From a phage, in the sequence record PZ445527.1: a stretch of DNA of 64,000 nt, one strand, 5' to 3'. Under the pieces are notes generated by a model. The model had not been told where the DNA came from. It ran no database searches and was given only the letters and a program-made list of their open reading frames with translations. The position numbers and the translations under genes were made by a program. Positions 15,232 to 61,709 of the stretch are shown here, piece by piece. Within the stretch, counting starts at the first letter, position 1, and each line of letters starts with the position of its first letter.

Positions 15232-15771
15232 TTACTTGTTAAGCTCTTCTAAATCTGGTATATATCCAAGAAACTCCTCAATTAAAGCGTACTCCCCAGC
15301 AATCTCCTGTCTAGACTTATTCGCTAAGTCTACTGCCAGAGCTAAGTCTTCATAATTGAAGGTTCCTTTCATACGTTTTCGGCCTGTTTCATCCGTAATT
15401 TGAACTCTCCATTTCTGCCTATCTTTAGCCCACATAACATTTGCATATCCAGATTTGGACTTTCTATGCTTCTTATTACGACAATTTTGTGGTTTAGATG
15501 CAGAACGTAAGTTTTTCCATCGGTTATTTTGTGGATTTCTATCTATGTGATCCACAAATTCAGGTATATATCCTTCCATATATAGGAAGGCCCATCTATG
15601 GGCTCCCTGCCTCTCCCCTTCCACCATTATCATTATGTAATCATTGTTATATAGAGTTCCAGCTTCCATTCCCCTCTTTACATACTGATTATTACCATCT
15701 ATCTTCCAGGTAAATATCCCGGTTTCTGGATTATATTCTAGTAATTCTTTTAGTCTTTCTTGAGTGATCAC
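15232..15771 (-). CDS. HNH homing endonuclease (AP2-like N-terminal domain) 179 aa
   Basis: N-terminus MITQERLKELLEYNPETGIFTWK, HNH-type His/Asn core; paralog of 39016..39558. Confidence 0.7.
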   Translation of the reverse strand: MITQERLKELLEYNPETGIFTWKIDGNNQYVKRGMEAGTLYNNDYIMIMVEGERQGAHRWAFLYMEGYIPEFVDHIDRNPQNNRWKNLRSASKPQNCRNKKHRKSKSGYANVMWAKDRQKWRVQITDETGRKRMKGTFNYEDLALAVDLANKSRQEIAGEYALIEEFLGYIPDLEELNK

Positions 15772-16172
15772 AATTTATTAATGGCCTCTAAGAAGTTTTT
15801 CATGCACTTAACAGTTGCGGTGCTGAGGTCTAGAGTAGTTCCTAAACATTCTGTTAATGCTGCCTGGTAAGGCGCTTTTAAACGCCCTTCAGGGACTTCT
15901 ACCTTTTTGTAGGTTTTATTCTTTACTTTATCTAGCATAGCTTCAAGAACATTGAGAGGCAACTTCGCACCCTCAATATTCACACCAAGCATTTCGGTCA
16001 GCATGTTATTAAGATCAATACGAGTAAGTTTCTTGCCTTTAGACATAGTAGTTCCTGCCTTCTTCTCAAGTTTTTTACGCTCTGGTGAATCGAGGTCACG
16101 TAATGCGATGTTCAACTCATATGGAGCCATGTTATAATGTTCCGCCATTTGAGTGTAGAAACGATCAGACAT
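15768..16172 (-). CDS. hypothetical protein 134 aa
   Basis: ORF track. Confidence 0.55.
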   Translation of the reverse strand: MSDRFYTQMAEHYNMAPYELNIALRDLDSPERKKLEKKAGTTMSKGKKLTRIDLNNMLTEMLGVNIEGAKLPLNVLEAMLDKVKNKTYKKVEVPEGRLKAPYQAALTECLGTTLDLSTATVKCMKNFLEAINKL

Positions 16173-16247
16173 AGTATATACCTCTCTTAACTAATTTATG
16201 TATATATTATATAATAACTAGGGCTAAAAGTCAACTACTTTTTTATC

Positions 16248-16664
16248 TTAATCTACTGCATGTATAAATCTTTTCCTAACTAGATACATAGTTATTGGGT
16301 AAATTGAGTACATAAGTATAGGGGAGAAAAGGGTGAAATACGCTGTAACTCCCCCAGCTAACATCAAAGGTATTAATGCTAGAGTAAGGGCCATAAGAAT
16401 CATACCGAATGAAACAGCCAAAGCTATGGATATAGGATTCTCTAGTTCCATCCATAACCAACAATATTTCGTATCTCTGTGGCAATTGCATTTACAAACG
16501 CCGAATAAACCCATAATTATATACTCTAGTCCGTGAATAACCTTTATTAATAAGCTATTTCGGGTAGTTAATGCAATGATAGTAAAGACTATCATTAAAA
16601 CGAATACTACTAGACTTATTTTCCAAATACCTAGCAGCATCATAGTGAATAGTTCTGCAAACAT
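16248..16664 (-). CDS. multi-pass membrane protein (lysis-associated, holin candidate) 138 aa
   Basis: Several hydrophobic helices; immediately downstream of endolysin. Confidence 0.5.
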   Translation of the reverse strand: MFAELFTMMLLGIWKISLVVFVLMIVFTIIALTTRNSLLIKVIHGLEYIIMGLFGVCKCNCHRDTKYCWLWMELENPISIALAVSFGMILMALTLALIPLMLAGGVTAYFTLFSPILMYSIYPITMYLVRKRFIHAVD

Positions 16665-16705
16665 GGCTTTCTCCTATCTTCAAAAGTTATTAAAGCCCCC
16701 TTTGC

Positions 16706-16730
16706 CTAAAAAGGCGGGAGTATTCCCGCC
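16706..16730 (-). terminator. rho-independent terminator (ggcggga-gtat-tcccgcc + U-tract)
   Basis: 7-bp GC stem at 16713-16730, UUUUU on minus strand. Confidence 0.65.
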
Positions 16731-16739
16731 GTATCTTAC

Positions 16740-17153
16740 TTAAATCAATTCTATATGTGGGCCATCAAAAGTACCACGTTGGATTTCATCCTTATAACTT
16801 CCGTTCTGGTTCCAATCACCACCCCATCTAATCTTTACCCCTAGCTCTTCTGCTGCCTTAAAGAAGGCATCTGCCACTAATTTGAATGATTCTAAATCAT
16901 TCCAATCAATCTTCCCATTTTTAAGAGGAGCAAAGTCAACGGCCAGCCCTTGTACGTGTTTTGACTTGCTCGGGTCTTTTAAAAACGAGGTTCCATTCTT
17001 AATATTTTGGGCGCTTTGTTCTAAGGAACGTAATCCTTCTGTAATTGTAAAATCATATGGGCTTAATTCTAAAGCTCTATGAGTTACTCTTACTAAATCT
17101 GGATGAACACCCTTTAATCTATCTAAACTTCTTTTACTAAATTTAAAACTCAT
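16740..17153 (-). CDS. lys: endolysin, L-alanyl-D-glutamate peptidase (peptidase M15 type), T5 endolysin-like
   Basis: 137 aa, same length as T5 endolysin; conserved blocks LELSPYDFTI, NGTSFLKDPSKSKH, DFAP, GKIDWNDLE. Confidence 0.85.
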   Translation of the reverse strand: MSFKFSKRSLDRLKGVHPDLVRVTHRALELSPYDFTITEGLRSLEQSAQNIKNGTSFLKDPSKSKHVQGLAVDFAPLKNGKIDWNDLESFKLVADAFFKAAEELGVKIRWGGDWNQNGSYKDEIQRGTFDGPHIELI

Positions 17154-20054: not shown

Positions 20055-20731
20055 CTTTTCATATTCCTGAATGACGTAACCGTATCAAATCCATGTGCTG
20101 CTAGGCGGTCTTTATCAGAAGTGGTAATAATATCTGGTTCTCCTGTTCCAAGTACACCCCAAATATACTGCTCGATTCTTTGGTGCAGCCGATATAGGTT
20201 AGGTTCCACACTCTGCCACGGAATACCTGATAGGTGTAGACGCGGATTAGTTATAACCTTGAAGTATTTATTGTTATCTTTATCATTTGGAACTAATGAA
20301 TCTAGAACTGCTAACGGTACTCTTAACTCAGTTAAGGCTTCTTCAGCTTTGGGGGTAACTTCTTCTTGCCATGCTAAGATAGACTCTTTTGGCTTCCCCC
20401 TATTTATGTCTAGCAAAGAAAACCCTGTTGACCATCCCTTCTCCTCCAAAATTTCTAACGCCTCGTCCAAACTGAAGGTTTTTACTTGGGTATCCAGTAC
20501 ATCAATGTGGTATAACCAGTAAATCTCCCCAGCTAGGAAGAAAGGCAAAATTTTAAAGTAGCCAATCTTTCCCTCAATACGAGCAATCCTACGTTCTTGC
20601 ATGATCATATAGTTGTCATCATCTGGGGCTTTTATTGTTAGCTCTTCAGTTTTACGTTCCCAAACGCGATCGGGGTCGAACAAACTGTTCTGCAAATCAT
20701 ACACATCTACGAATTTAGAGATGATTCTCAT
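20051..20731 (-). CDS. hypothetical protein 226 aa
   Basis: ORF track; promoter upstream. Confidence 0.6.
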   Translation of the reverse strand: MRIISKFVDVYDLQNSLFDPDRVWERKTEELTIKAPDDDNYMIMQERRIARIEGKIGYFKILPFFLAGEIYWLYHIDVLDTQVKTFSLDEALEILEEKGWSTGFSLLDINRGKPKESILAWQEEVTPKAEEALTELRVPLAVLDSLVPNDKDNNKYFKVITNPRLHLSGIPWQSVEPNLYRLHQRIEQYIWGVLGTGEPDIITTSDKDRLAAHGFDTVTSFRNMKR

Positions 20732-24603: not shown

Positions 24604-24996
24604 CTATCGTTGTCTTGTTGAAACTCTATTTCTGGCCCTATGCGTAGAGGTCATAGAGTGGCAGTTAGGGCAGAGAATCTTTAGATTTTCTGGAGAACAG
24701 TTAGTTGCATCTCCATCTATATGATCTACCTCAGTTAAAACTGCTCCGTCAATTGGATGTTTCCCATCCCAACCACATACTTCACAAGCAGTACCACGAG
24801 TATCCCACAGCCACTTCCTAACAAAAGGTTTTAATTGTGCAGCTTTACCAGTATAACCAGGTTCTTCACCTGCCAGCCACTTTAATACTTTTTGCTTTGT
24901 CTGGTACTCCTGCTGACAAGCAGGACCACAATACTTACCTGCGGAACCTCTACTTTTAGGTTTTGTGATTCCGCAATTTAAACAAGTAAACTCCAT
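24604..24996 (-). CDS. HNH endonuclease 130 aa
   Basis: HNH core (HIDGD...N...NL..LCPNCH) with zinc-finger cysteines. Confidence 0.75.
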   Translation of the reverse strand: MEFTCLNCGITKPKSRGSAGKYCGPACQQEYQTKQKVLKWLAGEEPGYTGKAAQLKPFVRKWLWDTRGTACEVCGWDGKHPIDGAVLTEVDHIDGDATNCSPENLKILCPNCHSMTSTHRARNRVSTRQR

Positions 24997-25482: not shown

Positions 25483-25560
25483 TGGCAGGGGATATTGGAT
25501 TTGAACCAATGATCTCGACTTCAAAGGCCGTTGTGCTAACCGTTACACTACTCTCCAATT
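25483..25560 (-). ncRNA. tRNA-like 3' fragment (canonical T-arm + acceptor 3' strand + CCA) without a pairing 5' acceptor strand
   Basis: ATTGG-TTCAAAT-CCAAT T-arm followed by atcccct-g-CCA; no complementary 5' strand within 100 nt. Confidence 0.3.
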
Positions 25561-25648
25561 GTTTGGCTGGAGTGCCTGATTCAATCCCAGGCACCTTCGG
25601 AGTCAGAGGCCGACGACTTGACAATTGATCTACACCTCAAGAATACTA

Positions 25649-25885
25649 TTAACTAGATGCTGGTTCTGCTGGCTGAGATACAGCAGGCTGTTCTAATGTA
25701 TCTGGTGCTGATACAGAGAAAAGAGCTTGTAATGCTGCAATATCACGCTCGTAAGTTTCAATACGAGTAGTAAGAGTATCTACCATCTGTTTATGATAGG
25801 CTAAGTTATTCTGAGATTCATCTCGAAGGGTTTGCAGTTCTGCAAGACGTGTTAACATAATTTCACTAATTAAAGCATTACTCAT
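25649..25885 (-). CDS. hypothetical coiled-coil protein 78 aa
   Basis: ORF track. Confidence 0.5.
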   Translation of the reverse strand: MSNALISEIMLTRLAELQTLRDESQNNLAYHKQMVDTLTTRIETYERDIAALQALFSVSAPDTLEQPAVSQPAEPASS

Positions 25886-26075
25886 TTGTTTCTCCTAAAT
25901 TTTCCGGTTCTTCTAAACGTTTGCCTTCATGATCTACTCGAATAACTCCGCATCCTTCGCAAATCACAACTGCACCATAACCTTCTTTGACTTCAGCTTC
26001 TGTAATCAAACCAGAAAGATCACCAGTATCTCTGCCCCACATATCAATGGAGCATTGTTTGCAGAAATCAGCCAT
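25878..26075 (-). CDS. small Cys-containing protein 65 aa
   Basis: ORF track; CKQC...CEGC. Confidence 0.45.
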   Translation of the reverse strand: MADFCKQCSIDMWGRDTGDLSGLITEAEVKEGYGAVVICEGCGVIRVDHEGKRLEEPENLGETNE

Positions 26076-26100
26076 ATTTTATTTCCTATTTAAGTTAATT

Positions 26101-26177
26101 TGGGGTGGCTAGTGGAACTCGAATCCACATAGGCCTGATTCACAATCAGGATCATTAACCAATTATGATATAGCCAC
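26101..26177 (-). tRNA. tRNA-His (anticodon GUG)
   Basis: Perfect 7-bp acceptor, D-stem TCAT/ATGA, anticodon stem CCTGA/TCAGG with loop TTGTGAA, T-arm GTGGA-TTCGAGT-TCCAC, encoded CCA. Confidence 0.75.
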
Positions 26178-26638: not shown

Positions 26639-26650
26639 TTATAAATTGTT

Positions 26651-26735: not shown

Positions 26736-26741
26736 CTAATT

Positions 26742-27158: not shown

Positions 27159-27165
27159 CTCTATG

Positions 27166-27881: not shown

Positions 27882-27890
27882 ATAATTTAT

Positions 27891-33662: not shown

Positions 33663-34484
33663 TTAAAATAGATCATATTCTAATCTATTGGGATTTTCTC
33701 GGTATCCATAAGACGTAAGAGTACCCCTCATATACTCTGCGTCAACAGGATTAGATGTTACTAGAACCACTTTTAGTGGTCTTTGACCTAAAAATAGTAT
33801 ATGATCTAATAAGTCTTTTCCTTGTACCTCTGGATCTCCTAAATCTGAGTCCATAAATAAATAGGATCCTGTGAAACTAAATATATCTGATAGTTCCAGC
33901 GCACCTATAACTGTACGACAAATAATGGACATTTCAGGTAGATCTCTAACATCGTCTATTAGAATATTGGTCTGCTTCCCAATTTCTGCATTACATAAAC
34001 CATTTACTAGTTTTTCTCTTTCCCCTTTAGCTTGTTCGAAAGTGGTGAAGCCAGGAGATACGAAAAACTTTCCACCTAATGTAATGCTATACACAAAACC
34101 CTCTGGGAGTAGTTCTACACCTACGGTTTTATTAGTATTAATCCTATTTAACTTAAAATTTGTCTCTCTTAGATTAATAATTCTGTTATCCCACGGTATA
34201 GTATTTATATGGTCGATCATATAAGGCGGCTCTTCACCATAATGGAGCAACCACGCTATTCGGTGTCCATAAATAATTGTGGGTTTATTATCTAAGAGCA
34301 AACTAACTCTGATGTACCCATCAGAGTTCTTACTACATATTTCTCTCCCAGCATATAGGGTGTGCCAAGTTTTATTCTTGTATTTATTAGGCTTATAAAA
34401 TAATTTACCGGTATAAGGATTATACTCTATAATTTCTCGAATATAATCTATATATGGTAGTATTTGTTTTTGTAATTTACCCAT
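33663..34484 (-). CDS. HNH endonuclease domain protein 273 aa
   Basis: N-terminal AP2-like segment and HNH motif (GHRIAWLLHYG...IDHINTIPWDNRIINLR). Confidence 0.6.
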   Translation of the reverse strand: MGKLQKQILPYIDYIREIIEYNPYTGKLFYKPNKYKNKTWHTLYAGREICSKNSDGYIRVSLLLDNKPTIIYGHRIAWLLHYGEEPPYMIDHINTIPWDNRIINLRETNFKLNRINTNKTVGVELLPEGFVYSITLGGKFFVSPGFTTFEQAKGEREKLVNGLCNAEIGKQTNILIDDVRDLPEMSIICRTVIGALELSDIFSFTGSYLFMDSDLGDPEVQGKDLLDHILFLGQRPLKVVLVTSNPVDAEYMRGTLTSYGYRENPNRLEYDLF

Positions 34485-38542: not shown

Positions 38543-39019
38543 TCACATCTCGGCAAGTTCTTGCTCAGTAATAACAGTATTACATAATGCGTCAACTTCT
38601 TCATTACCTCTAATACCTGAGTGCCCTTTAACCTTAATAAAGGTAGGGTTAGTATTATGAAAATTAATATACTGTTGGGTTAGTTTAAATGCTTCTTGCC
38701 ATAGTTCTAAATTGAGAGGAGCTTCACCATCTCCCTTCTTCCAGCCTTTCTTCTGCCAAGACCACATCCAGCTTTCCATACCATTTTTACAGTATGCAGA
38801 ATCAGTGTAGATTATAACTGGACGTTTATCATTCTTAGTAGCCCAGCGCAGAACTTCAACAATAGCTGTAAGTTCCATTTCATTGTTTGTGGTTTTTGGA
38901 CTGAAACCCGACTTAGAACCCAAACGTTCGTCATTAGGATCATAAACTACGAAACCCCAAGCACCTAAACCAGGATTACCTTTACAAGCCCCATCTGTAT
39001 ATATATGAAATGTACTCAT
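38543..39019 (-). CDS. rnhA: ribonuclease H (RNase HI type) 158 aa
   Basis: N-terminal FHIYTDGACKGNPG...WGF and conserved acidic residues. Confidence 0.8.
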   Translation of the reverse strand: MSTFHIYTDGACKGNPGLGAWGFVVYDPNDERLGSKSGFSPKTTNNEMELTAIVEVLRWATKNDKRPVIIYTDSAYCKNGMESWMWSWQKKGWKKGDGEAPLNLELWQEAFKLTQQYINFHNTNPTFIKVKGHSGIRGNEEVDALCNTVITEQELAEM

Positions 39020-39558
39020 TTATTAAGTTCCTCTAAAATAGGGGGTGGTTTTGTGGAATCAAAAGTTTCTATAACAGCGTTTTTACCGTGTAACTGTAGA
39101 CGAAGTTCATTGGCACATTGAATGGCGGATTCTAGGTCTTTGTACTCAAAATAACCACCATATACTGACTTTTTATCGGAGTCTCTAACATGTACTTGCC
39201 ATTTCTGATTTTGCCTATTCCAGCTAATTCCTAGATAACCAGATTTACTTCTAGTGGTTTTATTTCTCTGATTCTCTTGGTAATTAGATTTCCTGAGATT
39301 AATCCATCTATTATCATCTCGTATGCGGTTTATGTGGTCTACCATTTCCGGTAGATAGCCTTCCATATAGAGAAATGCTAGCTGATGCGCATAATATGGA
39401 TTTTTATCCACGGATATAGTTATATATCCGTCTTTTCTTAGATGACCAGCAATACTTCCTATTTTTCCGTTTCTACCCCTGACTCCCGTCCTTCTAGTAA
39501 ATATTCCGGTATCGGGGTTATAATCGAATAGTTCTTTTAATCTTTCTTGTGTGATCAT
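39016..39558 (-). CDS. HNH homing endonuclease (AP2-like N-terminal domain) 180 aa
   Basis: Paralog of 15232..15771 (same MITQERLKEL...YNP.TGIFT start). Confidence 0.7.
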   Translation of the reverse strand: MITQERLKELFDYNPDTGIFTRRTGVRGRNGKIGSIAGHLRKDGYITISVDKNPYYAHQLAFLYMEGYLPEMVDHINRIRDDNRWINLRKSNYQENQRNKTTRSKSGYLGISWNRQNQKWQVHVRDSDKKSVYGGYFEYKDLESAIQCANELRLQLHGKNAVIETFDSTKPPPILEELNK

Positions 39559-39938
39559 TCATCTAACCATCCTATGTCTATACTAAGTAATGCTTTTATT
39601 CCTGTAATACCTGTACCATAGGTATTATATCGAATAGCACTTCTGCTCTTTACTTCAAGTATATTTTCATACTCTGTATTTTCTAGAATTTCTGTAGATA
39701 TACCTAAATATCCTGATTGATCTTCCTCGTCCCAACCCATATCTTCTAGAAGATTTAGACGTAATTCTACCTTCTCATCTCCATTGCCTACAGAGTAGTA
39801 GTCTTCTAAAGTCCTGAATTTAGAAGTGATAGAGTCTAGTATTAATAATATCTGTTCCTTAGTAATAGTTTCTTTATCACCCTGTAAGTAATTGGAGTAA
39901 TTCAGAAGGGCTTGTTCTAATTCAATTTCTTTACTCAT
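39555..39938 (-). CDS. hypothetical acidic protein 127 aa
   Basis: ORF track. Confidence 0.5.
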   Translation of the reverse strand: MSKEIELEQALLNYSNYLQGDKETITKEQILLILDSITSKFRTLEDYYSVGNGDEKVELRLNLLEDMGWDEEDQSGYLGISTEILENTEYENILEVKSRSAIRYNTYGTGITGIKALLSIDIGWLDE

Positions 39939-42619: not shown

Positions 42620-43126
42620 TTATAAACTATCAAGCTCCAATAGTTTAGCATCACGCCATTCTATAGCATCCTCTAATTCTTTAAATGTTTTTGTATATTT
42701 TACGCCTTTACGAGCTATCTGGACTTGATATGATCCACTAGCTTTTTGATGAATATTTTTAATACCTAGCTTATTGTCTTTATGCGCCCCGACATTCTTT
42801 CCGTTACTGAATCTATCAGAAGCTACTAGGTTAATAGCTCTATTATCATGTCGTATTCTATTATCGTGGTCTACTTCAGGTGGCAGATACCCATGAATTT
42901 TAGCAAAGATTACCCTATGGGCTAAGTAGGGGTATCCTTTAATATTTAATACTATATATCCTGTAGATTTATCTAAGGAGCCTGCTGGTTTTCCGGCATA
43001 TTTGGTATTAAATGTTTTATTATCTCTAGGTCTATGAGTCAATATTCCAGTATATGGATCATAATCAAATAATTTAGCTACCTCTAGATGATCTTCTAAT
43101 GTTTTTGACATAATTATAATTTCCAA
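42620..43126 (-). CDS. HNH homing endonuclease 168 aa, free-standing between nrdA and nrdB
   Basis: AP2-like N-terminus (FDYDPYTGILTHR) and His/Asn core (EVDHDNRIRHDNRAINL). Confidence 0.7.
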   Translation of the reverse strand: MEIIIMSKTLEDHLEVAKLFDYDPYTGILTHRPRDNKTFNTKYAGKPAGSLDKSTGYIVLNIKGYPYLAHRVIFAKIHGYLPPEVDHDNRIRHDNRAINLVASDRFSNGKNVGAHKDNKLGIKNIHQKASGSYQVQIARKGVKYTKTFKELEDAIEWRDAKLLELDSL

Positions 43127-43175: not shown

Positions 43176-46100
43176 TTATAAGGTGCAGCCACCTGAAGAA
43201 CATCCTGTAGTTTCTCCAGCTCCTCCACCATTCGCAGTGTTAAAGTTAGCATAATACCAGGTTTTTATACCATACTTAACCGCAGTCATAAAGTCACGAA
43301 CTACTACTGGGCCAGGGATGATTTCATTCTCGAATTTAGAGTAATCATAATACATCTGGAAACTTGATGACTGACTCAAGAATTTTTGGTAAACGGCGTT
43401 CCACTTGATCCACTCAATACGATCTACATCATAGGCCAGTTTATAGCTCATGAGAGTATCCCAATCAGTTGCACCTGGGGCAATTGCAATTACTTTATTC
43501 ACTGCACTACCCTTGATAGATACAATCTTACGAGGTGGTTCAATAGAGTTAGTAACGCCTAACAGAACAGAGGAACTTTCTCCCGGCATCTGCGCAGTCA
43601 GAACAGAGTTACGCATACCGTATTTCAGAATGTCTGCACGCAGAGATTCCCAATCCATTTCTAGACCTACGGATACCAGCTCATCAACAGTTTTCTTATA
43701 CGTGTCGATTACCAGAATTCCTTTGGATGGTTTAGTACGATTAAACCATTCACATGCACCTTGTTCTTTAGCCAGACGTACAGAGGCTTTATGTAGGAAG
43801 TAAGACAGTTTTTCAGCTTCACGATGAATCCAGTTACGTGCTTCAACGCCTTCATAAGCCAAACCTTCCGCCGCCATTGCACCTGCTGCGTTCATCAGAC
43901 CAATACCAACATTACGACGTTTCTTAGCCGTATATTCCATAGTTGGGAACGGATAATCCTGAATTTCAATGATGGTATCAACGAATTTCAGGAGGATGTA
44001 GCAAGTTTTCTCCCACTCAGCCAGAGATTCCATGCGTCCTAGTACAACACCACCTAAGTTACACAGAGATACTTCACCAATATCCTCTGGCTTCATTTGA
44101 TCAAGCTGCTCTTTTGTCTTATACAGCTCTGTGATATGATGGAACGGGCGTGTAGGCTGAGTAATTTCTACACAGTTACCCGCTAAAATGCCATTAAATA
44201 CACCTAAGTTTAATTTAGGTTCTGTAAAGCAATAAGTATCACTAATACGACCAGTAAACTCAACGTTAGTTACAGTTACAAAACGGGTTGCGTCTCTATT
44301 GGGGCGTGTTAGGTTTAAGAGTTTCTCTTTATCCAAAGAGAGTCCTAAATCTTTAAGTTTCCAGAAGCCACTACTCCCCACAATAAGCCTACTAGTCTCC
44401 TTGCAGTGGTATAGTTTACTAGTACCAGTACCATCTGGTAACTCGTGGTCACCTTCTTTGCGTCCTAAAATAATCTTGCTAGTAACCCCCAATTCTAGTA
44501 ACAAATCCTTCACTTTACTTAGAAAATCAGGCTCTGCCGAAGCAACCACAATACTAGGAGTTGTGCCATTTTTCTGTATGCAGCCATCTGCATCTAAATA
44601 TCCCTCTAACCATTTGATACGGCTATCAATAGTATACTCTGGGCCAGGTACAAAATACTTCGGCATTAAATCAGACTTAACAATATAGCTCAGTCTACCT
44701 GTGCTGTCCAGTAATCCACTTCCCTGAATTTCTGCGTCAATTTTATCCACTAATGGTAGTTTGCCACCTTTTTCATAGAAGTACAGCTTAGGTTCTCCAT
44801 GTCTTCCATAAGTTCCATCTCCAGTGAAGAAACCGTTAGTATAAGGAGATTTTAGTACCATATTTCCATGATCTACAATAGGATTACTAAATTTAGGCAT
44901 TTTCATACCTACTTGCAAGTCTACTGCTCGTACCTCTTCTAGCCCCTGTTTGAAAGAGGTACGACGATCCTCTCTGACATATTTGGGCTGGTGGTAGAAC
45001 TTATGATAAAGAGTAGATTCAATAGTAGATCCATCAGAGAATGTGATTTTTATCAACTCCTGAGCTTCCCCAGTTTTAGTAGGGATAACTGTTGACCATT
45101 CTTGTCCGTTCCAAATCTCTACTTCTTTACCAACTAAATCAATAATCTCTATGTTACCATTTTTGGTTAAAATTTTTGTTTCTGGAGCTACACAAAGGTT
45201 TGTCATACGGATTGGATCAAGGAAGTTACCGTGACGATTAGATTCCCCGATGTGGTGCGCATACATACGTCCTGTTTCCATTCGGATACGTAGCCAAGTA
45301 TCTAGGATTTCTTTTGCAGAGACTTTAGGAGCTGCTGGAACTGTTTTTCCTTCGTGGTCGATCTTTGTAAGAGATGCCACACGTTTCTCCGCTGCCACGT
45401 AGATTTCTTCAAATTTAGCCTCGTCATCACTATAAAACGCTTCATGAACTTCTGGAGCATAGAAGTATGACATTAGCGTAATATCTTCATTTTTCAGATA
45501 ACGTTTTAACAAAAGATTGTTGAAGCTCAGAGAATAATCCATCTTATCAATTTTATTCTCGTCTGTAGCACGTTGTTGCTTAACCTGCATCAACTGAATG
45601 ATTTCAGGGTCAAAGTATGGATAAGACACTGTAGCAGAACCACCACGAGTTTGCTGAGTATTGGCCTTTACTGAGCGATCAATGTGTCGATAATATGGCA
45701 GTTTTCCGGAATGCGGGAATGCCCCATTTCGCACCGGATCAGCAATTGATCTGCTTTCAAGATGATACCCGATTCCCGCTCTGGCTGCAACCATTTTGAA
45801 GACGATGTGCTCGGCGGTGTCGATTGAATCCAACGTGTCAGTGGAATCCACGAGGCAGCAACTAGCAAATCCACGGTCACTAGAGCGCAGACCAACCAGT
45901 GGCGGCGTAGGAACGTTGATTTTGTGGAGCGACATTGCGTTGTAGAGGTCGATTGCATCTAGAATTGTCCAGTTAGGTTGAGATAACATCGCCATTGCCA
46001 TACCCATGTAGGCAAACTGCGGAGTTTCATAAATTTCACCAGTGGCTATGTTGCGGCGGGAATACTTATCAAAGAACTGCTTCAGTCCACCACTAGTAAA

Positions 46101-47945: not shown

Positions 47946-48611
47946 ATGGTAAGAAAGAAAATAACTACAGAAGATGTGAACTTAGCACTTGCTCCCAGAG
48001 GAATAATTATGCTAAGCACGTATATATCAGCTAAATCCAATGCTATATTTAAGTGCTCTAATGGGCATAGTTGGGAGGCTAGAGTAGATAATGTAAAAGG
48101 TGGGAGAGGTTGCCCTTATTGTGCTAGTCGTACTTTAGATCTTAAAGAGGTAAATGAATCCTTAGCTGCTCGTGGAATAAAGATGGAAGGTAAATACATC
48201 AATTCTAAGAGTAAAATTATGTTCAGCTGTGAGAATGATCATAGGTGGGAGTCTACCCTTGATAGTGTTAGAAATCATAATTCTGGTTGTCCTATATGTT
48301 TATTAGAGAAGGATAATTATCCTACTAACGTATATATTTTAGTAAGTAGTATGGGAACCAAAATAGGGATGTCTAGCAGAACTAAAGATAGACTCAGAGA
48401 TATTAAAACTTCTTCTAACATACATGATTTAAAAATATTTAAGGAATATAGCTTTTCAGATAGATCAAAAGCTGTGCGTATTGAAAGAGAAGCCCATTTA
48501 CAGTTTAAGGAATATAATTGTCAGTACAAAGATTTTGATGGTGCTACAGAATTTTTTAGTATTGAGCCAGAAGTAGTAGCAAGGTTTATTGAGGAAATAA
48601 TTAATGAATAA
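47946..48611 (+). CDS. zinc-ribbon repeat + T5orf172 (GIY-YIG-related) domain protein 221 aa
   Basis: Two C..GH.W....G.GCP.C repeats (CSNGHSWEARVDNVKGGRGCPYC; CENDHRWESTLDSVRNHNSGCPIC) and a KIGMSSRTKDRLRDIKT segment. Confidence 0.6.
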   Translation: MVRKKITTEDVNLALAPRGIIMLSTYISAKSNAIFKCSNGHSWEARVDNVKGGRGCPYCASRTLDLKEVNESLAARGIKMEGKYINSKSKIMFSCENDHRWESTLDSVRNHNSGCPICLLEKDNYPTNVYILVSSMGTKIGMSSRTKDRLRDIKTSSNIHDLKIFKEYSFSDRSKAVRIEREAHLQFKEYNCQYKDFDGATEFFSIEPEVVARFIEEIINE

Positions 48612-54259: not shown

Positions 54260-57049
54260 GTGTTTTCTATCCTCCAAGGTCACGCCGGGTTTTCTCGTGA
54301 TTTAGCAACAGGTATTTGGCGAGAAATCAAAGCGGAAGATTATACCTTTGCCAAGCGATTCTCGAAAGAGCATCCAGAAGGTAAACCAGCTTCTATGCCC
54401 TTCAAATTTGATGTAATAGAAGAGCACGACCCACAAAGCCTTGCAGAAATGTTACCACTTATGAGACGTTTAACGTCTGACCCTCATATCGTTGCGGTAC
54501 GAGGTCGATGTCTTGCACCTAAAAATAATGTGCGACGTAAGAAAGATAACTTTAATGTATCTAATCCTAGTAATATTATTGCTATGGACGTGGATGGTAT
54601 CCTAGATACCGGTGGGTACGACAAATTTAACCTTGTTGGTATGGCCCGCCACATTATTAAGATGTTGAATAGTATTAGTGAGGATATGTTTCCTCTTGAT
54701 GCAGGCTTTATAGCTCATGCATCGTCTTCGGCTGGGCTAAAACCAGGTATCCGAATGCACTTAATGCTAGAATCTAACGTCAAGGTAACTCAGGGTCAGC
54801 TAAAGTTCTTATTTACATCTATCAATGATAGTAGTAAGCAAAAATTTGGTTTTGATATTGCCGACCTAGCTTATTATTCATCTGTCCAGCTCCACTATTT
54901 TGCCAACCCCTTATTTAGCGATGGTATTGTTGATCCGTTTAAAGCGGAGAGTAAGCCACGTCTGGTGTATGTTAAAGGTTCGAAAGTAAATTTGCCCAAT
55001 AATCTGGTTGACTATGAAACAACTAGAGGGGAGTTTAAAGAGGAATTCTACTCTTTACTCGATCAAATTAAAGGCAAAAAGATTGCTTCCGATAAAGTAG
55101 AAGAAACCATTAGCGAGTTAGAAGAGGCTGATGATGGAGTGTACTTGCGTATTATCCCCAAACTATACCATAGAGCATTAGAGGATGGTGTTGATTTTGA
55201 ATGGCTAGAACGTGAGATTAAACCAGCTTTATCTGAATATATTGCAACTAAAGATAACAGCCGTAATATTCAAGATTACTTTAATAACGGTCGTAAGCAG
55301 GCTCTCAAAGCGTTTGTTAATAATTCTAAACGTGAGATTCCATTAAATCTGAAAGGTGTTCCACTTAAGAAATTAGAAGTGGATTCTCCACCAGAAGTTC
55401 CATACCTGAAGATTAACATTGTGCCCCCAAAAGGCCATATAACATTTGTTAAGGCAAGTCTTGGTACTGGTAAAACTACGGCAGTAACTAAATGGCTGGA
55501 CGCAGGTGTTCTTCCGGGCAACTTTTTAGCAGTTACAAATACTAGAGCACTGGTATCTTCAAATGCTAAGAAATTTAGTGCAGGACAATATGATAAGTCT
55601 GTAGATATGCTTAATTTTAAACGTGGAGCTATTGATCGTATGTCCACAACTATTCACTCTTTACATAAGTTCAAAAGTTTTATTGGGCAAATAGACACCA
55701 TTTTTATTGATGAATGTGACGCTGTAATGAATGACCTATTATTCGCCCCAGTTGTTAAGCAACGTCGCGAGTGTATTCAAGTTCTACGTGACATCCTCAT
55801 GACAGCTAAGACTGTAATCTTATCCGATGGTGATATTAGTGCGGAAACAATTGAAGCATATGGTTCTTTGATTGAGTTCGATAAACCAGTTGCATTCTAT
55901 AATCATCACCGTAAGATGCTGTCAAAAGCTCATGCTTATGAGTTCCCTGATGAATCTAGTATTTGGGTTGCACTTCAGACCTCTCTAGAGATGGGTGAGA
56001 AATCTATTCTGGTATCTGATTGTGGGCCGGATGAACTGAATGAGAAGGGCATGGCGTTGCGTCGTAATACGGGTGCGTTAGTTAAGGAAATCCACTCAAA
56101 CTCTACGTCTGATGTAGATATTCGACGTATTCTGGATTACACAACTAATGAGTTAATTGACCAACAAATTGATTGCTTATTATGTAGTCCATCCGTAACG
56201 AGTGGTGTTGACTTCAACTATTTTGATAACGTATTCGTTATTACTAGAACCTCAAACCAAGCGCCAAACATGCGTTTTCAAGCAATCAGGCGCGACCGTG
56301 GTGCTCAGAATATCTATTATTTTATTGATAAATCCACTAGTGGGTTCTCTGCAGGTTCTGAACAATATAATATTGATGAAGGTTGGCTGGAGTTAGCACA
56401 GCAATTATACGCACGTCGCAGAGAGCTGGAATCTAGGAACTATACTAGTACTTTACGTTATTATTTGCTTGATCAGGGTGCAACTATTGATATTTTCAGC
56501 GAAAGCTGGGGAACTATTGAAGGTGCTGGTAAAGAGTACACAGAAGAGCGAATCAAAGCTATTCTGCACTCAACTCCTGATTATTGTGCTCCACGTCATG
56601 CGGATGCGTATGAAGCTAAACTACTTCTTGTCCGCTATTATCATCTTGAGTCTATTAAAGATGTAACAGTTGAGCATGTTGAACAATATATCAAAGATAA
56701 GCCGAATGATCGAGCTGCATTCTTCCATAAGATGCACGAGATGTTCTGGGAAGATATTAAGAAGTGTTCAAATGTGACCATTAAACCATTCATAGAAGCT
56801 CTGAAGGGTAAGAAGAAGGACTTCTTCCTTAAAACAGGTCAGAGTGCTAACCCAAAATATGCTAGAATGTATCTTGGTATGATGGGTATTGGTAAGGATA
56901 TGAACACTGAAAATATTGTAGACTGGTACAGAACCTATTGTAAAATCGAGTGTATGCCAATTCCTTTCAAATTCATGACAGAGGAAGAGAAGGCTATGGC
57001 AGAAGAAGTAATGTCAGAGCTAGGTGCTAGAAATGACAGTGAAGAATAA
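54260..57049 (+). CDS. Walker A/B NTPase, helicase-like; possible replication origin-binding protein 929 aa
   Basis: Walker A (VKASLGTGKTTAV), Walker B (IFIDECDAV); GTG start with ACAGGAG SD. Confidence 0.65.
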   Translation: MFSILQGHAGFSRDLATGIWREIKAEDYTFAKRFSKEHPEGKPASMPFKFDVIEEHDPQSLAEMLPLMRRLTSDPHIVAVRGRCLAPKNNVRRKKDNFNVSNPSNIIAMDVDGILDTGGYDKFNLVGMARHIIKMLNSISEDMFPLDAGFIAHASSSAGLKPGIRMHLMLESNVKVTQGQLKFLFTSINDSSKQKFGFDIADLAYYSSVQLHYFANPLFSDGIVDPFKAESKPRLVYVKGSKVNLPNNLVDYETTRGEFKEEFYSLLDQIKGKKIASDKVEETISELEEADDGVYLRIIPKLYHRALEDGVDFEWLEREIKPALSEYIATKDNSRNIQDYFNNGRKQALKAFVNNSKREIPLNLKGVPLKKLEVDSPPEVPYLKINIVPPKGHITFVKASLGTGKTTAVTKWLDAGVLPGNFLAVTNTRALVSSNAKKFSAGQYDKSVDMLNFKRGAIDRMSTTIHSLHKFKSFIGQIDTIFIDECDAVMNDLLFAPVVKQRRECIQVLRDILMTAKTVILSDGDISAETIEAYGSLIEFDKPVAFYNHHRKMLSKAHAYEFPDESSIWVALQTSLEMGEKSILVSDCGPDELNEKGMALRRNTGALVKEIHSNSTSDVDIRRILDYTTNELIDQQIDCLLCSPSVTSGVDFNYFDNVFVITRTSNQAPNMRFQAIRRDRGAQNIYYFIDKSTSGFSAGSEQYNIDEGWLELAQQLYARRRELESRNYTSTLRYYLLDQGATIDIFSESWGTIEGAGKEYTEERIKAILHSTPDYCAPRHADAYEAKLLLVRYYHLESIKDVTVEHVEQYIKDKPNDRAAFFHKMHEMFWEDIKKCSNVTIKPFIEALKGKKKDFFLKTGQSANPKYARMYLGMMGIGKDMNTENIVDWYRTYCKIECMPIPFKFMTEEEKAMAEEVMSELGARNDSEE

Positions 57050-57266
57050 AAAATGGGAAACAAGGAAGCTTCCAGTAAAAGAACGTAAAGTTCCTGTTTA
57101 TGATACTTCGGAAAAGCTATGTAGGGTGGTTCCTGCTAGACTAGCTGGCATCCCTAACATATCCGAGTGGTTACTTAAACAACGGAGGACTAACGTATCT
57201 CTTCGCATAGGGTTTGAGTTAGATAAAGTATATGCTGAACTTTCTTCTTTGCTCAAGGAACAATAA
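57033..57266 (+). CDS. small hypothetical protein (start uncertain)
   Basis: ORF track 57024..57266; overlaps end of helicase gene. Confidence 0.3.
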   Translation: MTVKNKKWETRKLPVKERKVPVYDTSEKLCRVVPARLAGIPNISEWLLKQRRTNVSLRIGFELDKVYAELSSLLKEQ

Positions 57267-57838
57267 TGTTTATAAGAATTCCTAAATTTCCTGACTATGC
57301 AGTGAATGAAAATGGAGAGGTGTATTCTTTTCTCTCCTACAAGTTTCTTACTCCAGGTCAAAATACTGCTGGGTACTTACAAGTTAATTTAATGAAGGAC
57401 GGTCCCCCTATAAATATGAGGGTGCATAGGTTAGTAGCCTATTGTTTTGGACTACTTCCTGGGTTAGAATCAGAATTGGTAGTAGACCATATAAATGATG
57501 ATAAGTTAGATCCTAGACTATCTAACTTGCAGGTATTAACCTACAGAGCTAATGCAATAAAATTTCATAATAAAAATTGGAGAGAACATCCAGATTTCCT
57601 AGTAGAAATTAAGAAATTAGAAAGTATGGGCATAACTAAAGCAGCTGCATCCTATAGGCGCAAGGCTATGCTTAAATACATTGTGGCTGTTCCCTCTAGT
57701 GATACTCTAACCTTAGAATTAATAGAATCTACATATCAGAAAACCAATTCTTGGAGAAAAACTGCTAGAGTGCTTGGATTTAAAAGCGCCCCAGCTATTC
57801 TTTATAGATATAACAAGCTGAAAGCAGCTTCTTTATAA
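57266..57838 (+). CDS. HNH homing endonuclease 190 aa
   Basis: NUMOD4-like N-terminus (IPKFPDYAVNENGEVYS) and HNH core (VVDHINDDKLDPRLSNLQVL). Confidence 0.7.
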   Translation: MFIRIPKFPDYAVNENGEVYSFLSYKFLTPGQNTAGYLQVNLMKDGPPINMRVHRLVAYCFGLLPGLESELVVDHINDDKLDPRLSNLQVLTYRANAIKFHNKNWREHPDFLVEIKKLESMGITKAAASYRRKAMLKYIVAVPSSDTLTLELIESTYQKTNSWRKTARVLGFKSAPAILYRYNKLKAASL

Positions 57839-59690: not shown

Positions 59691-59707
59691 GTATTTGGGA
59701 TATGTAA

Positions 59708-60016
59708 ATGAGCGAACAGGTAAATCAAAACTATGAGGGACACGTTGATGACCAGTCCATCATACTTTGGGAGAAGGAGGGGGAACAAGTAAGATTAACA
59801 GTATCTGAATTTCGTGGGAATCTATACATGGGTATTCGTTACTGGCTTCTTGATATTAATGATGAGTGGTTTCCAACGAAATCTGGCTTCTCTTTTCCTT
59901 ACACCCTAGAAACAACATCACAGCTTTTCTATGCGTTTACACAGATTCTTAGCGAATCTGAGGTTTTACATGAAGTACAGAAACGAGCTGAAGAACTCAA
60001 AGCCAAGAATGCCTAG
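59708..60016 (+). CDS. hypothetical protein 102 aa
   Basis: ORF track. Confidence 0.55.
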   Translation: MSEQVNQNYEGHVDDQSIILWEKEGEQVRLTVSEFRGNLYMGIRYWLLDINDEWFPTKSGFSFPYTLETTSQLFYAFTQILSESEVLHEVQKRAEELKAKNA

Positions 60017-60030
60017 TTCTTGGCTTTTTC
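60002..60030 (+). terminator. rho-independent terminator (gccaagaa...ttcttggc-TTTTT)
   Basis: 8-bp stem overlapping stop codon, then T5 tract. Confidence 0.65.
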
Positions 60031-60043
60031 TTTATAAATGTAT

Positions 60044-60072
60044 TTGCTTTCAACTCAGTTTTGTTATATAAT
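60044..60072 (+). promoter_or_regulatory. sigma70 promoter (TTGCTT-17-TATAAT) for ligase
   Basis: Consensus. Confidence 0.7.
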
Positions 60073-60103
60073 ATTTATATAAATTAATGAGAGATATAAA
60101 TAA

Positions 60104-61075
60104 ATGACTAATGTAAAAGAATTTATTAAACGCTGTCAAGAAGCATATTATCAAGGCATGTCTTTAATCTCTGATGAAGAATATGATCGTCTGGTAAAAC
60201 GCTTCCCGTTAGAGGAAGAGATCGGGCCTAAGGGTGATATTCCACACCTATATCGTATGTATTCTTTACAGAAAGTTTATTATAATCGTGGGGATAAACC
60301 ACCATTCAATCCTTTAGGTCAGGTGGAAACCGATAAGTTAGATGGTTGTGCAATTTCTCTGCTATATATTAACGGTGAATTTGTTCAAGCATTAACCCGT
60401 GGTAACGGTATTCTGGGGAATGATGTCACAAGCAACGTAAGATTGCTGAACATCCCTAAAAAGATTTCCCAAAAAGTACCTACCCAAATCACTGGTGAAG
60501 TTCTAATTACAAAGGAAGTAGAAAATAAACGTAACTTTGCCTCTGGTGCTATTAACCTCAAAGATAGCAATGATTTTGTACAACGCATTGGAGAAGGCGG
60601 TTTAATTTTTGTTGCTTATGGTATCCAATGTTCTGCTGAATCTGTAGGTATTACAGAAGCATACTTAAAAGATATGCTTTGGCTAGAGAATGAGAACTTC
60701 TTAACAGTTGTTAATGTACGTTCCTTCTTTAAATGGATTCCAACCGACGGTAAAGTTGTTCGTATTAATGATAATAATAAATTCTTCCGCGAAGGGTGGA
60801 CTAATAAATTCCCTCGTGGAGCATTCGCTATTAAAGAGGATGAAGAAGGCGAGATTACAACTCTTACTAAAGTTGAATGGGCGACAGGAGCGTCTGGTAA
60901 AGTAACTCCAGTTGGTTATTTCGAACCGGTAATTATTGATGATGCAGTTATTACAAAAGCCACCCTTAATAATGTAGATTATATTAAATCACTAGATTTA
61001 GAGATCGGATGTCAGATTAGAGTAGTACGTGCAGGCGGTGTGATACCAAAGATTGTGGAAAGAGTTTATGAATAG
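60104..61075 (+). CDS. NAD-dependent DNA ligase, N-terminal part (adenylation + OB-fold) 323 aa
   Basis: Adenylation motif KLDG (ETDKLDGCAISL) and LigA-like blocks; ends before the Zn-finger/HhH/BRCT region. Confidence 0.8.
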   Translation: MTNVKEFIKRCQEAYYQGMSLISDEEYDRLVKRFPLEEEIGPKGDIPHLYRMYSLQKVYYNRGDKPPFNPLGQVETDKLDGCAISLLYINGEFVQALTRGNGILGNDVTSNVRLLNIPKKISQKVPTQITGEVLITKEVENKRNFASGAINLKDSNDFVQRIGEGGLIFVAYGIQCSAESVGITEAYLKDMLWLENENFLTVVNVRSFFKWIPTDGKVVRINDNNKFFREGWTNKFPRGAFAIKEDEEGEITTLTKVEWATGASGKVTPVGYFEPVIIDDAVITKATLNNVDYIKSLDLEIGCQIRVVRAGGVIPKIVERVYE

Positions 61076-61709
61076 CGGAGTTTATCCACTGATAGTAAAA
61101 GGATATAAATATGTTGGCTATTCCAGAAATATTGATAGAAGGTTTAAGGAGCATACATATACTTATGTTACTAATCTAGGTCATATAGACTCCCATATCC
61201 CGAGAAACTTACTAGGTGTACAGGTACAGAAGTCAGATATAAGCATAGAAATTCTAGAGTATATTTCTCCGGAAGAGAGTACTGATGTATTTTTAAGGGC
61301 AGAAGATTTGTGGATACAGAGGATTTGTCCAGAGCTAAATACAAACGTTCCTTTATCTAACTTAGTCGAAGCAGTAGAATATTGTATTTCAAACCCATCT
61401 GAAACGTATAAATCAGCGGCCTCAAAGTTCAACATTACACCTAAAATGTTAGAGCATGTTGCCTCTGGAGGATATAACTCCTTAGGATGCATTTTATCAA
61501 GAAGTACTTTAGAACTATTTCGTAGTAAGAAATATAAAGAACTAATATTAGTACACGAAAATGGGGCTAGGTTTGTAGCGACGTCTTACCTTGAATTACA
61601 TAGATTATCTGGGCTAGATAGGCATAGAATATCTGACCTACATAAAGGCAAGTACCCCACCTTTAAAGGGTGGACCCTTTTAACCCCATCTACCATATCG
61701 GAATTATAA
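61068..61709 (+). CDS. GIY-YIG homing endonuclease inserted between the two ligase ORFs
   Basis: GIY-YIG motif near N-terminus (GVYPLIVKGYKYVGYSRNIDRRFKEH); ATG 61068 overlaps ligase stop. Confidence 0.7.
   Translation: MNSGVYPLIVKGYKYVGYSRNIDRRFKEHTYTYVTNLGHIDSHIPRNLLGVQVQKSDISIEILEYISPEESTDVFLRAEDLWIQRICPELNTNVPLSNLVEAVEYCISNPSETYKSAASKFNITPKMLEHVASGGYNSLGCILSRSTLELFRSKKYKELILVHENGARFVATSYLELHRLSGLDRHRISDLHKGKYPTFKGWTLLTPSTISEL

Follow-up and report, generated by a model that had tools for sequence, protein, structure and literature searches.

Probable homing elements in the early and DNA-metabolism region of a T5-like phage

Homing endonuclease genes (HEGs) represent the main variable genes of T5-like phages (PMC10644984). 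The annotation of T5 itself comprises hegA to hegI, including hegH between nrdB and nrdA, and the corresponding endonucleases F-TflI, II, IV, V and VI as well as P-TflVIII are credited to Akulenko et al. 2004 where that work is cited in two later papers (PMC10644984, PMC3326045). An analogy between T4 mobE and HEGs of T5-like phages was published in 2012 (PMC3326045), and a further study described T5orf172 HEGs near RNR genes as well as nucleases at exchange boundaries (Barth, Dunham & Seed 2023, PMC10448857). The pattern reported here is real but not new, being well documented for T5-like phages, and a GenBank copy of at least 95 % identity exists for every element discussed below.

The DNA analyzed in this work (the window; 64,000 nucleotides of sequence record PZ445527.1) belongs to a T5-like phage (Demerecviridae, Markadamsvirinae), whose early and DNA-metabolism region it represents. 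The genome is approximately 93 % identical to T5, with nucleotide identities of 92-95 % to T5, BF23, H8 and others. A first-pass annotation had proposed at least six HNH genes, single genes of the GIY-YIG and T5orf172 types and a LAGLIDADG intein in nrdA, and all nine elements were recovered with Pfam where they had been placed. They are given here together with one accompanying open reading frame.

15232..15771, minus strand: free-standing HNH_3 homing endonuclease gene, 179 aa (Pfam HNH_3, E=1e-13)
24604..24996, minus strand: small HNH endonuclease gene of the zinc-ribbon type, 130 aa, bordering the tRNA cluster (Pfam HNH, E=3e-5, and HNH_3)
33663..34484, minus strand: in-frame fusion of an HNH module with a cREC_REC receiver-like domain (Pfam HNH_3 and cREC_REC)
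39016..39558, minus strand: free-standing HNH_3 homing endonuclease gene, 180 aa, between rnh and thy (Pfam HNH_3)
39555..39938, minus strand: 127-aa open reading frame, not an endonuclease (no Pfam family; phrog_26840, unknown function)
42620..43126, minus strand: free-standing HNH_3 homing endonuclease gene between nrdB (41408-42553) and nrdA (43176-46628) (Pfam HNH_3)
44175..45194, minus strand: LAGLIDADG intein, 340 aa, inside nrdA (43176-46628) (alignment to T5 NrdA; LAGLIDADG_3; TIGR01445)
47946..48611, plus strand: T5orf172 (GIY-YIG superfamily) homing endonuclease gene (Pfam T5orf172, E=1e-10, MUG113, DUF4379 and CapR; phrog_681 endonuclease)
57266..57838, plus strand: free-standing homing endonuclease gene with HNH_3 and a weak NUMOD4 match, between the T5.110 homologue and D2 (Pfam)
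61053/61068..61709, plus strand: free-standing gene for a GIY-YIG homing endonuclease, located between ligA (60104-61075) and ligB (~61870-62637) (Pfam GIY-YIG; I-TevI alignment)

A profile search over all six-frame open reading frames of the window returned exactly six HNH genes and no additional GIY-YIG or T5orf172 paralogs, while Rfam revealed no group I or group II introns in the window. In an alignment with the T5 heg proteins, the HNH catalytic motif is intact in all six HNH proteins, with the D-H, N and N-L positions invariant. Five of the HNH genes are separate open reading frames and in this sense free-standing and intron-less as proposed, but the sixth (33663-34484), joined in frame to the N-terminus of a host gene product, departs from this definition. 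Likewise, the description of the elements as neighbors of conserved enzymes in a nucleotide-metabolism module applies to six of them (rnh/thy, nrdA/nrdB, the nrdA intein, nrdD, ligA/ligB and the origin-binding protein/D2 pair), but not to 15232, 24604 and 33663, which are found next to small genes and a cell-wall hydrolase or border the tRNA cluster; the small neighbors include a weak thioredoxin-like match at threshold and a gene with a glycyl-radical domain. The density emphasized in the first-pass annotation is high when compared to the family median of two HNH genes over the same region, but lies within the range of 0-12 observed in 27 relatives (seven in T5) and is therefore not unusual.

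Compared to T5, the window carries HEGs of the same HNH_3/HNH families in the same regions (early, tRNA cluster, nrdA/nrdB gap, replication module), but their distribution differs. It lacks hegF, E, D, C, A and I at the T5 sites, T5 is empty at 15232, 39016, 57266, in the ligA/ligB gap, upstream of nrdD and at the nrdA intein, and the nrdA/nrdB gap is occupied by a different lineage in each of the two phages. This variability extends to the relatives, as the sequence of each element was found in only 0-7 of 27 close relatives, and fixation in synteny across all of them clearly does not apply. At five of the nine sites (15232, nrdA/nrdB, intein, 57266 and GIY-YIG), most relatives possess a closed empty site of 1-107 bp (also given as 1-70 bp); at the 33663 and T5orf172 sites a short resident sequence takes the place of the element, and the 24604 site is complex. 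Occupied sites frequently carry a different HEG lineage. Altogether, the 84 HNH genes of 28 genomes fall into 33 lineages at approximately 21 sites, with a lineage almost always bound to one site and unrelated HNH lineages sharing sites such as nrdA/nrdB in different phages.

Several observations support the interpretation as homing, namely the domain content with its intact catalytic motifs, polymorphism, the presence of several lineages per site, elevated similarity of HEGs and flanks between carriers, and purifying selection. HEGs and their adjoining flanks are often more alike between carriers than neighboring genes, and when identity is compared over windows of equal length, HNH_33663, HNH_15232 (compared with SHSML-45) and the intein (compared with SP3) rank among the highest 0-2.4 %. 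Within the same genome pair, the dS of HEGs is lower than that of neighboring host genes, and dN/dS values of 0.0-0.22 (against alleles of at least 78 % amino acid identity) indicate purifying selection on the HEG reading frames. In genomes with empty sites, one flank is 9-19 points below background at four sites; this divergence is absent at four of eight sites, which counts against homing. A different explanation would be that differential loss and ordinary mosaic recombination from a nuclease-rich T5-like ancestor generated the distribution, with homing playing no current role. T5-like genomes are indeed mosaic, with identity profiles that swing from 65 % to 100 % even far from any HEG; in 6 of 11 HEG-carrier pairs, HEG similarity is not unusual with respect to background windows, and a decayed HEG copy exists. 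General recombination and differential loss could thus lie behind part of the pattern. As a full account, however, this scenario appears improbable, since loss alone cannot yield up to five unrelated lineages at one site, and the site specificity of lineages, the lower dS of HEGs relative to adjacent host genes, exchange boundaries that fall at HEGs and purifying selection on their reading frames all speak for homing.

The homing interpretation can be followed at the individual sites. HNH_15232 begins within the end of the gene upstream of it (15768-16172), the start of the one overlapping the stop of the other. Of 28 relatives, 20 have an empty site here (1-2 bp), whereas the other eight carry at least three distinct HEG types, or five HNH lineages at 70 % amino acid identity. 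Copies are present in SHSML-45 (99 % amino acid identity) and HdH2 (98 %), and dN/dS amounts to 0.0-0.06. As previously noted, HNH_15232 and HNH_39016 are paralogs (48 % identical, E=1e-52). HNH_39016 is moreover 65 % identical to T5 hegE, which occupies another locus. Its site is fully empty (67 bp) in just 3 of 17 genomes (T5 and two others), and a copy of 95 % amino acid identity is found in NR01, for which dS is 0.10 for the HEG and 0.14 for rnh, as compared to 0.85 for thy. The open reading frame at 39555..39938 occurs in approximately 7 of 27 relatives, covaries with the HNH_39016 site and may represent hitchhiking cargo.

The gap between nrdA and nrdB is empty in 15 relatives and occupied in 13, with four HNH lineages in total. 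HNH_42620, for which either TTG at 43126 or an ATG five codons further downstream may serve as the start codon, shares 35 % identity with hegH, its counterpart at this site in T5, and 42 % with hegF. Its dS is lower than that of nrdB in the same pair (0.15 vs. 0.33 with H8 and 0.34 vs. 0.86 with c9565), and identity to c9565 climbs from a background of 84 % to 92-100 % around the gene. The proposed analogy to T4 mobE holds with respect to position: as for mobE and the T-even Seg/Mob genes, a sporadic free-standing endonuclease gene lies in the nrdA-nrdB gap, with a presumed target in a flanking RNR gene. It does not extend to sequence, as similarity to MobE is not detectable (BLASTP E=25), and HNH_42620 is consequently not assigned to the MobE family; the two genes have converged on one type of site and are not homologous.

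The intein within nrdA is a clean insertion from Cys479 to Asn818, with Cys819 at the +1 position, in the active-site motif NLC|VE, giving an NrdA protein of 1150 aa. Its N-terminal splicing region is detected by TIGR01445 (intein_Nterm; 35.2 bits vs. a cutoff of 24.5) and its endonuclease domain by LAGLIDADG_3 (E=8e-14; two LAGLIDADG motifs), while the C-terminal splicing block was recognized by eye only. It resembles LAGLIDADG inteins in the class Ia RNR alpha subunits of phages (ICP1 nrdA; annotated in SelmaRatti) in its insertion at the catalytic Cys motif and in Cys1, the terminal Asn and the +1 Cys, but differs in a penultimate Gly instead of the usual His. Homologous inteins with 42-54 % identity are found in RNR genes of many other phages, including those of Proteus, Acinetobacter, Staphylococcus and Vibrio. 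Among close relatives, the intein is missing in at least 25 of 29 and present in SP3; five close GenBank records (four or five phages) contain it.

The T5orf172 gene lies directly upstream of and overlaps nrdD (48604-50451), and its product is predicted by Pfam to bear treble-clef/CapR zinc-finger DNA-binding domains. Of the relatives, 17 are empty at this site, eight carry alleles of approximately 45 % identity, NR01 has a 95 % copy and SSP1 an HNH gene; the copies in NR01 and YJin-2024a are 95-97 % identical. A recombination boundary coincides with the gene, which matches the T5orf172 HEGs with CapR-type zinc fingers (PMC10448857) in domains, RNR neighbor and exchange boundary, without substantive difference. 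The sequence of the HNH gene at 57266 occurs in 0 of 27 relatives, three of which have a different HNH gene at the site, and copies of 87-96 % identity are found in 13 GenBank records (seven phages). The three copies that were examined occupy the same site in both genera, and the one in DaisyDussoix is frameshifted, an example of a HEG that has entered the decay phase of the homing cycle.

The ATG of the GIY-YIG gene (61068-61709) overlaps the ligA stop codon. Its Pfam score is exactly at the gathering threshold; however, the motifs GVY..YVG..R..H..E..N are evident by inspection, and the protein aligns to the catalytic domain of I-TevI (BLASTP E=4e-6) with the catalytic residues in register, in line with I-TevI/Seg-type enzymes. 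TIGR01453, which models endonucleases of group I introns, matched below cutoff, the C-terminal half contains no recognizable DNA-binding family, and the protein falls into no PHROG family. Of 29 relatives, one carries the gene and 27 or 28 have an empty ligA/ligB gap, and the gene occurs in 3 of 50,697 phage records, always in this gap and otherwise only in SP3 and SG_WM_RUS_R2. A HEG in the gap of a two-piece enzyme recalls the 'genes-in-pieces' nrdA of Aeh1 with mobE (Friedrich et al. 2007, as cited in PMC3326045). Since the ligase is split throughout the family, with or without the HEG, the latter is not a recent creator of the split. That so rare a GIY-YIG gene should lie between the two pieces of a split DNA ligase is worth noting in its own right.

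A function beyond homing is considered below for the two HNH genes near the tRNA cluster. The small HNH gene at 24604 belongs to PHROG HNH families, is related to T5 hegA and is shared as the same gene by only 1 of 23 relatives (HdH2, 99 % amino acid identity). The fusion at 33663-34484 is composed of an HNH module (aa 1-172, nt 33969-34484) and a cREC_REC module (aa 173-273, nt 33663-33968), the latter of which aligns as a homologue of T5.084; DNA identity to T5 ends exactly at the shared ATG. The fusion was found in 2 of 27 relatives and in approximately 28 GenBank records at an identity of at least 95 %.

It is also worth noting that orthologues of this fusion are annotated as inteins elsewhere, i.e., in the BASEL phages HildyBeyeler and SelmaRatti, which would imply that a T5.084-like protein results once the HNH segment has been spliced out. 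Compared to T5.084, the segment is indeed inserted in frame, and the GenBank entry of the orthologue places an 'intein' at aa 3-171. Nevertheless, this assignment is very hard to sustain and was rejected: neither Pfam nor NCBIfam gives a Hint/intein splicing signal in the segment, even at E<=1, whereas the nrdA intein does yield one; residue 1 of the proposed intein is Lys rather than Cys, Ser or Thr; and all 172 residues are explained by the HNH_3 HEG fold common to free-standing genes. An intron was not found at this locus either.

More serious, albeit still unlikely, is the possibility that some of the nucleases are domesticated and serve the phage instead of being purely selfish, notably the fusion and perhaps also the small HNH gene at 24604. 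The fusion may then be a nuclease under regulation, or it may contribute to RNA/tRNA repair or to anti-defense. Its length and architecture are identical in a variant of only 76 % identity, against which the HNH module gives a dN/dS of 0.03 and the cREC module one of 0.06 (dS saturated). It furthermore uses the resident promoter, ribosome binding site and ATG, the cREC gene itself is present in 27 of 27 relatives, and the locus adjoins the tRNA cluster. Such strong constraint over a long divergence is compatible with a cellular or phage function instead of or besides a selfish one. On the other hand, the fusion occurs in only approximately 5 % of T5-like records, with copies that are 97-99.6 % identical in genomes with a background of approximately 94-95 %, and this sporadic, near-identical distribution is typical for homing. 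Purifying selection would be expected for an actively homing nuclease as well, and the HNH module aligns over its full length with ordinary free-standing HEGs.

From these population patterns we infer cleavage events, target sites and ongoing activity, and thus homing that is 'active'. Upon co-infection with an element-free relative, an endonuclease would cut or nick the empty allele in or beside the neighboring conserved gene, and recombinational repair with the HEG-bearing genome as template would then copy the HEG and, by co-conversion, a few hundred bases of its flank. The intein would spread likewise, however in frame inside nrdA, and would have to splice out to give a working NrdA. Taken together, the nine elements are very likely selfish homing elements that spread between related phages by homing.

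The six HNH genes (each named here by its start, for example, HNH_15232), the GIY-YIG gene, the T5orf172 gene and the LAGLIDADG intein in nrdA that the first-pass annotation had listed lie in this T5-like genome with the positions and domains assigned to them, as verified with Pfam. In alignment with T5 hegE, F, H and I, the invariant positions D-H, N and N-L are retained by every one of the six HNH proteins, and the proposed paralogs HNH_15232 and HNH_39016 are 48% identical. A profile built from ten HNH proteins recovered exactly six HNH ORFs among the 371 six-frame ORFs of the window, in agreement with the number claimed, and profile searches of these ORFs revealed neither further GIY-YIG or T5orf172 paralogs nor overlooked endonucleases, the other variable ORFs being NADAR, metallophosphatase or of unknown function. 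The NADAR-domain gene (37736-38185, minus strand), present in only about five of 27 relatives, belongs to the variable accessory genes, not to the endonucleases; the NADAR family is linked to reversal of ADP-ribosylation. The arrangement is intron-less as described: Rfam matches in the window are tRNAs only, which rules out intron-encoded homing endonuclease genes (HEGs).

About 570 records of T5-like phages were matched by the window (megablast with three large segments; phages of Salmonella, Escherichia, Klebsiella and others), with top matches 92-95% identical and no identical record, and mean identity to T5 is 93.6% over alignable sequence. The gene order is that of the T5 reference annotation, starting with lysis and early genes, followed by a minus-strand tRNA cluster, rnh, thy, frd, nrdB, nrdA and phoH (minus strand) and, on the plus strand, nrdD, the replication-origin-binding protein, D2, D3, ligA, ligB and D5; the enzyme identities are backed by Pfam. 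Two of the plus-strand genes are located as follows, and a reading of the second as nrdD was ruled out.

48604-50451, plus strand: nrdD
54260-57049, plus strand: replication-origin-binding protein

The tRNA cluster (25483-32414, minus strand) comprises 12 tRNAs according to ARAGORN, as compared to 24-25 in T5, including a call of tRNA-Asp with anticodon 'atc' at 27805-27881; a tRNA-like element at 32343-32414 was called by Rfam alone, and two ARAGORN calls were missed by Rfam. In the homologues of T5.047 and T5.081, internal parts (20231-20638 and 32684-32929, minus strand) are replaced by allelic cassettes, whose sequence occurs in only 2-7 of 27 relatives and in which no nuclease is recognisable.

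For the analysis of polymorphism, four overlapping 20-kb loci per genome were taken from 27 close relatives and the aligning window positions computed. The rarest segments of the window turned out to be those of the nine elements.

Relatives (of 27) with the same sequence as each element (window start in brackets)
HNH gene (15232): 3
HNH gene (24604): 1
HNH part (33663): 2
block at 39016: 7
HNH gene (42620): 4
nrdA intein: 1
T5orf172 gene (47946): 1
HNH gene (57266): 0
GIY-YIG gene (61068): 1

When 500-bp flanks were used as anchors, many of the sites proved to be closed in the relatives. Between the flanks, 20 genomes have just 1-2 bp at the 15232 site, 15 have 67-107 bp at the nrdA/nrdB gap, 25 have 2-8 bp at the 57266 site and 28 of 29 have 38-70 bp at the ligA/ligB site; at the intein site, closure is exact in 25. 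In 17 genomes the T5orf172 site measures about 200-220 bp, and in 24 a short resident gene occupies the 33663 site. The situation at 24604 is complex, and of 17 genomes only three show a fully empty 39016 site (67 bp). Given these rare sequences and closed empty sites, the elements are neither fixed nor everywhere syntenic, the state that the first-pass annotation had set against its proposal of homing.

Other parts of that proposal need qualification. HNH genes are indeed dense, high within the family range yet not outside it: the same region of the 27 relatives contains 0-12 (median 2; T5 7, H8 12) as compared to six in the window, which rules out an unusual density. The description 'next to conserved enzymes' applies to six of the nine elements, while three have small genes, a cell-wall hydrolase or the tRNA cluster as their neighbours. 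Finally, the HNH gene between nrdA and nrdB is placed like T4 mobE, as stated, but sequence similarity to T4 MobE is absent; the resemblance is thus positional, and homology to MobE was ruled out.

Occupied sites often carry a different endonuclease, as revealed by translated searches of the relatives' inserts. For example, the 15232 site is occupied by the window lineage in two genomes, by HNH_39016-like genes in four and by HNH_42620-like genes in two, and the nrdA/nrdB gap by the window lineage (at 95-97% and 78%), by that of T5 hegH and by further ones at 36-43%. Upstream of nrdD, one 95% copy, a T5orf172 allele of about 45% identity (eight genomes) and an HNH gene (one genome) were found, with 17 genomes empty. 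A census of 28 genomes yielded 84 HNH genes in 33 lineages (at least 70% amino acid identity) at about 21 mapped sites; lineages are nearly always tied to one site and several sites host 2-5 lineages, the pattern to be expected if elements home site-specifically and compete for landing sites. Below the cut-off, relationships extend from site to site: HNH_39016 shares 65% identity with T5 hegE, a gene located elsewhere, and this likeness indicates older retargeting. A 127-aa ORF of unknown function (39555-39938, minus strand; phrog_26840) co-varies with the HNH_39016 site and is also present in several relatives without HNH_39016.

Identity profiles exposed HEG-linked blocks. Around the nrdA/nrdB HNH gene, the distant relative c9565 reaches 92-100% identity on a background of 84%. 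NR01 is 95-100% identical to the window up to and through the T5orf172 gene and then only 60-72% in nrdD, whereas T5 is 94-99% identical there (48604-50451), which places an exchange boundary at the HEG, as in other phages (PMC10448857). Two deeply diverged nrdD alleles circulate, with the switch exactly at the T5orf172 gene. Ranked against equal-length background windows, four pairs stand in the top 0-2.4%: HNH_33663 with H8 and with SHSML-45, HNH_15232 with SHSML-45, and the intein with SP3. HNH_24604 ranks at 5%, and the remaining six HEG-carrier pairs are unremarkable, so that the ranking gives a mixed picture. Synonymous divergence says more: dS of the HEGs is lower than that of neighbouring host genes in the same genome pair (H8, 0.15 vs. 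0.33 for nrdB; c9565, 0.34 vs. 0.86; NR01, 0.10 for HNH_39016 and 0.14 for the adjacent rnh vs. 0.85 for thy). With dN/dS values of 0.0-0.22 (against alleles of at least 78% amino acid identity), as compared to 0.01-0.08 for nrdB, thy and rnh, the HEGs code for proteins under constraint and are no decaying remnants. In empty-site genomes, moreover, there are four sites at which the divergence of one neighbouring flank exceeds background by 9-19 points (the gene at 15768-16172, the 3' ends of nrdA and ligA, and the 5' end of rnh), from which we infer that the target sites would lie in these four flanks. Taken at the population level, this evidence supports the homing interpretation of the nine elements well.

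Compared with T5 NrdA, the intein adds 340 aa as a clean insertion at the NLC|VE motif, in which the catalytic cysteine of class Ia ribonucleotide reductase (RNR) lies. It begins with Cys, ends with Asn and is followed by a +1 Cys, and it shows an N-terminal splicing match above cutoff and a LAGLIDADG_3 domain. Its C-terminus (44175-44180, minus strand) reads Gly-Asn; the usual intein C-terminus is His-Asn.

The GIY-YIG protein scores exactly at the Pfam threshold and has no match among solved structures, while its sequence contains GVY..YVG..RRFKEH..E..N and aligns with the I-TevI catalytic domain (E=4e-6). Its gene lies within an NAD-dependent ligase encoded in two pieces (60104-62637, plus strand; adenylation and OB domains in one, zinc finger, HhH and BRCT in the other), in the ligA/ligB gap, with its own ATG overlapping the ligA stop codon. 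Among the matches listed, the ligase is split in every Demerecviridae phage, with or without the HEG, and unsplit only in distantly related jumbo phages. A recent splitting by the GIY-YIG gene is thereby ruled out; the split may have an ancient HEG origin. Searches of 50,697 GenBank phage records found the gene in only two other phages, SP3 and SG_WM_RUS_R2, in both cases in the ligA/ligB gap; it belongs to no PHROG family, and the 'hypothetical protein' annotated there is a GIY-YIG endonuclease.

In the same records, HNH_57266 has copies of 87-96% identity in seven phages, and the three examined occupy the same site, in both Tequintavirus and Epseptimavirus. One of these three, the orthologue in DaisyDussoix (positions 1501-2081 of its locus), is broken into two ORFs by a frameshift and is apparently a decaying copy; a hegI-like gene lies one ORF upstream. 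About 21 records hold the T5orf172 allele at 90% identity or more, while T5's own orf172 is only 36% identical and lies elsewhere in the genome. Five close records, from four or five phages, contain the intein, and RNR genes of many unrelated phages have counterparts of 42-54% identity. With these copies, every one of the nine elements already has a public counterpart at least 95% identical.

One gene, which occurs at 95% identity or more in about 28 of these records, is an in-frame fusion.

33663-34484, minus strand: HNH::cREC fusion, an HNH module (aa 1-172) in frame with a cREC_REC domain that stands alone in T5 (T5.084)

DNA identity with T5 runs through the ATG, ends there and returns only close to the stop, so that the whole coding region is an alternative cassette expressed from resident signals. 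In BASEL records, the HNH part carries an intein annotation; this reading was rejected, as the part lacks any Hint/intein signal at E<=1 and the proposed first residue is Lys, and the public annotation is probably wrong. Nor was an intron detected at the gene with Rfam. The locus occurs in four states (cREC alone; free HNH and cREC; fusion; free HNH and fusion). An origin of the fusion in place, from a free-standing HNH gene of the 8sent65 type upstream of cREC, is not supported, because phage 1586 has both free HNH and fusion and the fusion starts at the resident ATG. A large protein search returned only two close clusters. A 76% identical variant on a distant T5-like contig has the same 273-aa architecture without indels, with dN/dS of 0.03 (HNH part) and 0.06 (cREC part) and saturated dS; on either of the two readings below, the fusion is old and under strong constraint, yet still spreading sporadically in T5-like phages. 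Our tentative reading, which we consider rather unlikely, is that 33663-34484 is neither a free-standing HEG nor an intein but an HNH homing module inserted in frame right behind the start codon of a conserved receiver-domain (cREC) gene, or else a domesticated receiver-regulated nuclease. If such a 'hostage' arrangement is true, the host cREC gene would be expressed only through the endonuclease ORF, and ORF-disrupting mutations of the HEG would be exposed to selection on the host gene. The fusion might be the only item worth further work.

The homing pattern as such is a textbook feature of the T5-like family, already present in the literature and the reference annotation. In T5, hegA-I are annotated, seven of them in the same region, including hegH (P-TflVIII) between nrdB and nrdA, and Akulenko et al. 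2004 (as cited in PMC10644984 and PMC3326045) characterised F-TflI, II and IV as site-specific endonucleases. The analogy of nrdA-nrdB with mobE is explicit in the AKFV33 paper of 2012 (PMC3326045), and the BF23 paper names HEGs as the largest contributor to differences between T5-like genomes (PMC10644984). Barth et al. 2023 (PMC10448857) described T5orf172 HEGs that carry CapR zinc fingers, abound in T5-like phages and frequently adjoin RNR genes, and also nrdA inteins of the LAGLIDADG type and nucleases located where exchanged segments meet. While no new principle emerges, the results help with annotation, with phage engineering (where HEGs skew how markers are inherited in crosses) and with the reading of mosaicism. 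Site by site, they confirm HEGs as the main gene-content variation of the replication and nucleotide-metabolism region of T5-like phages, in which HEGs mark the boundaries of genetic exchange.
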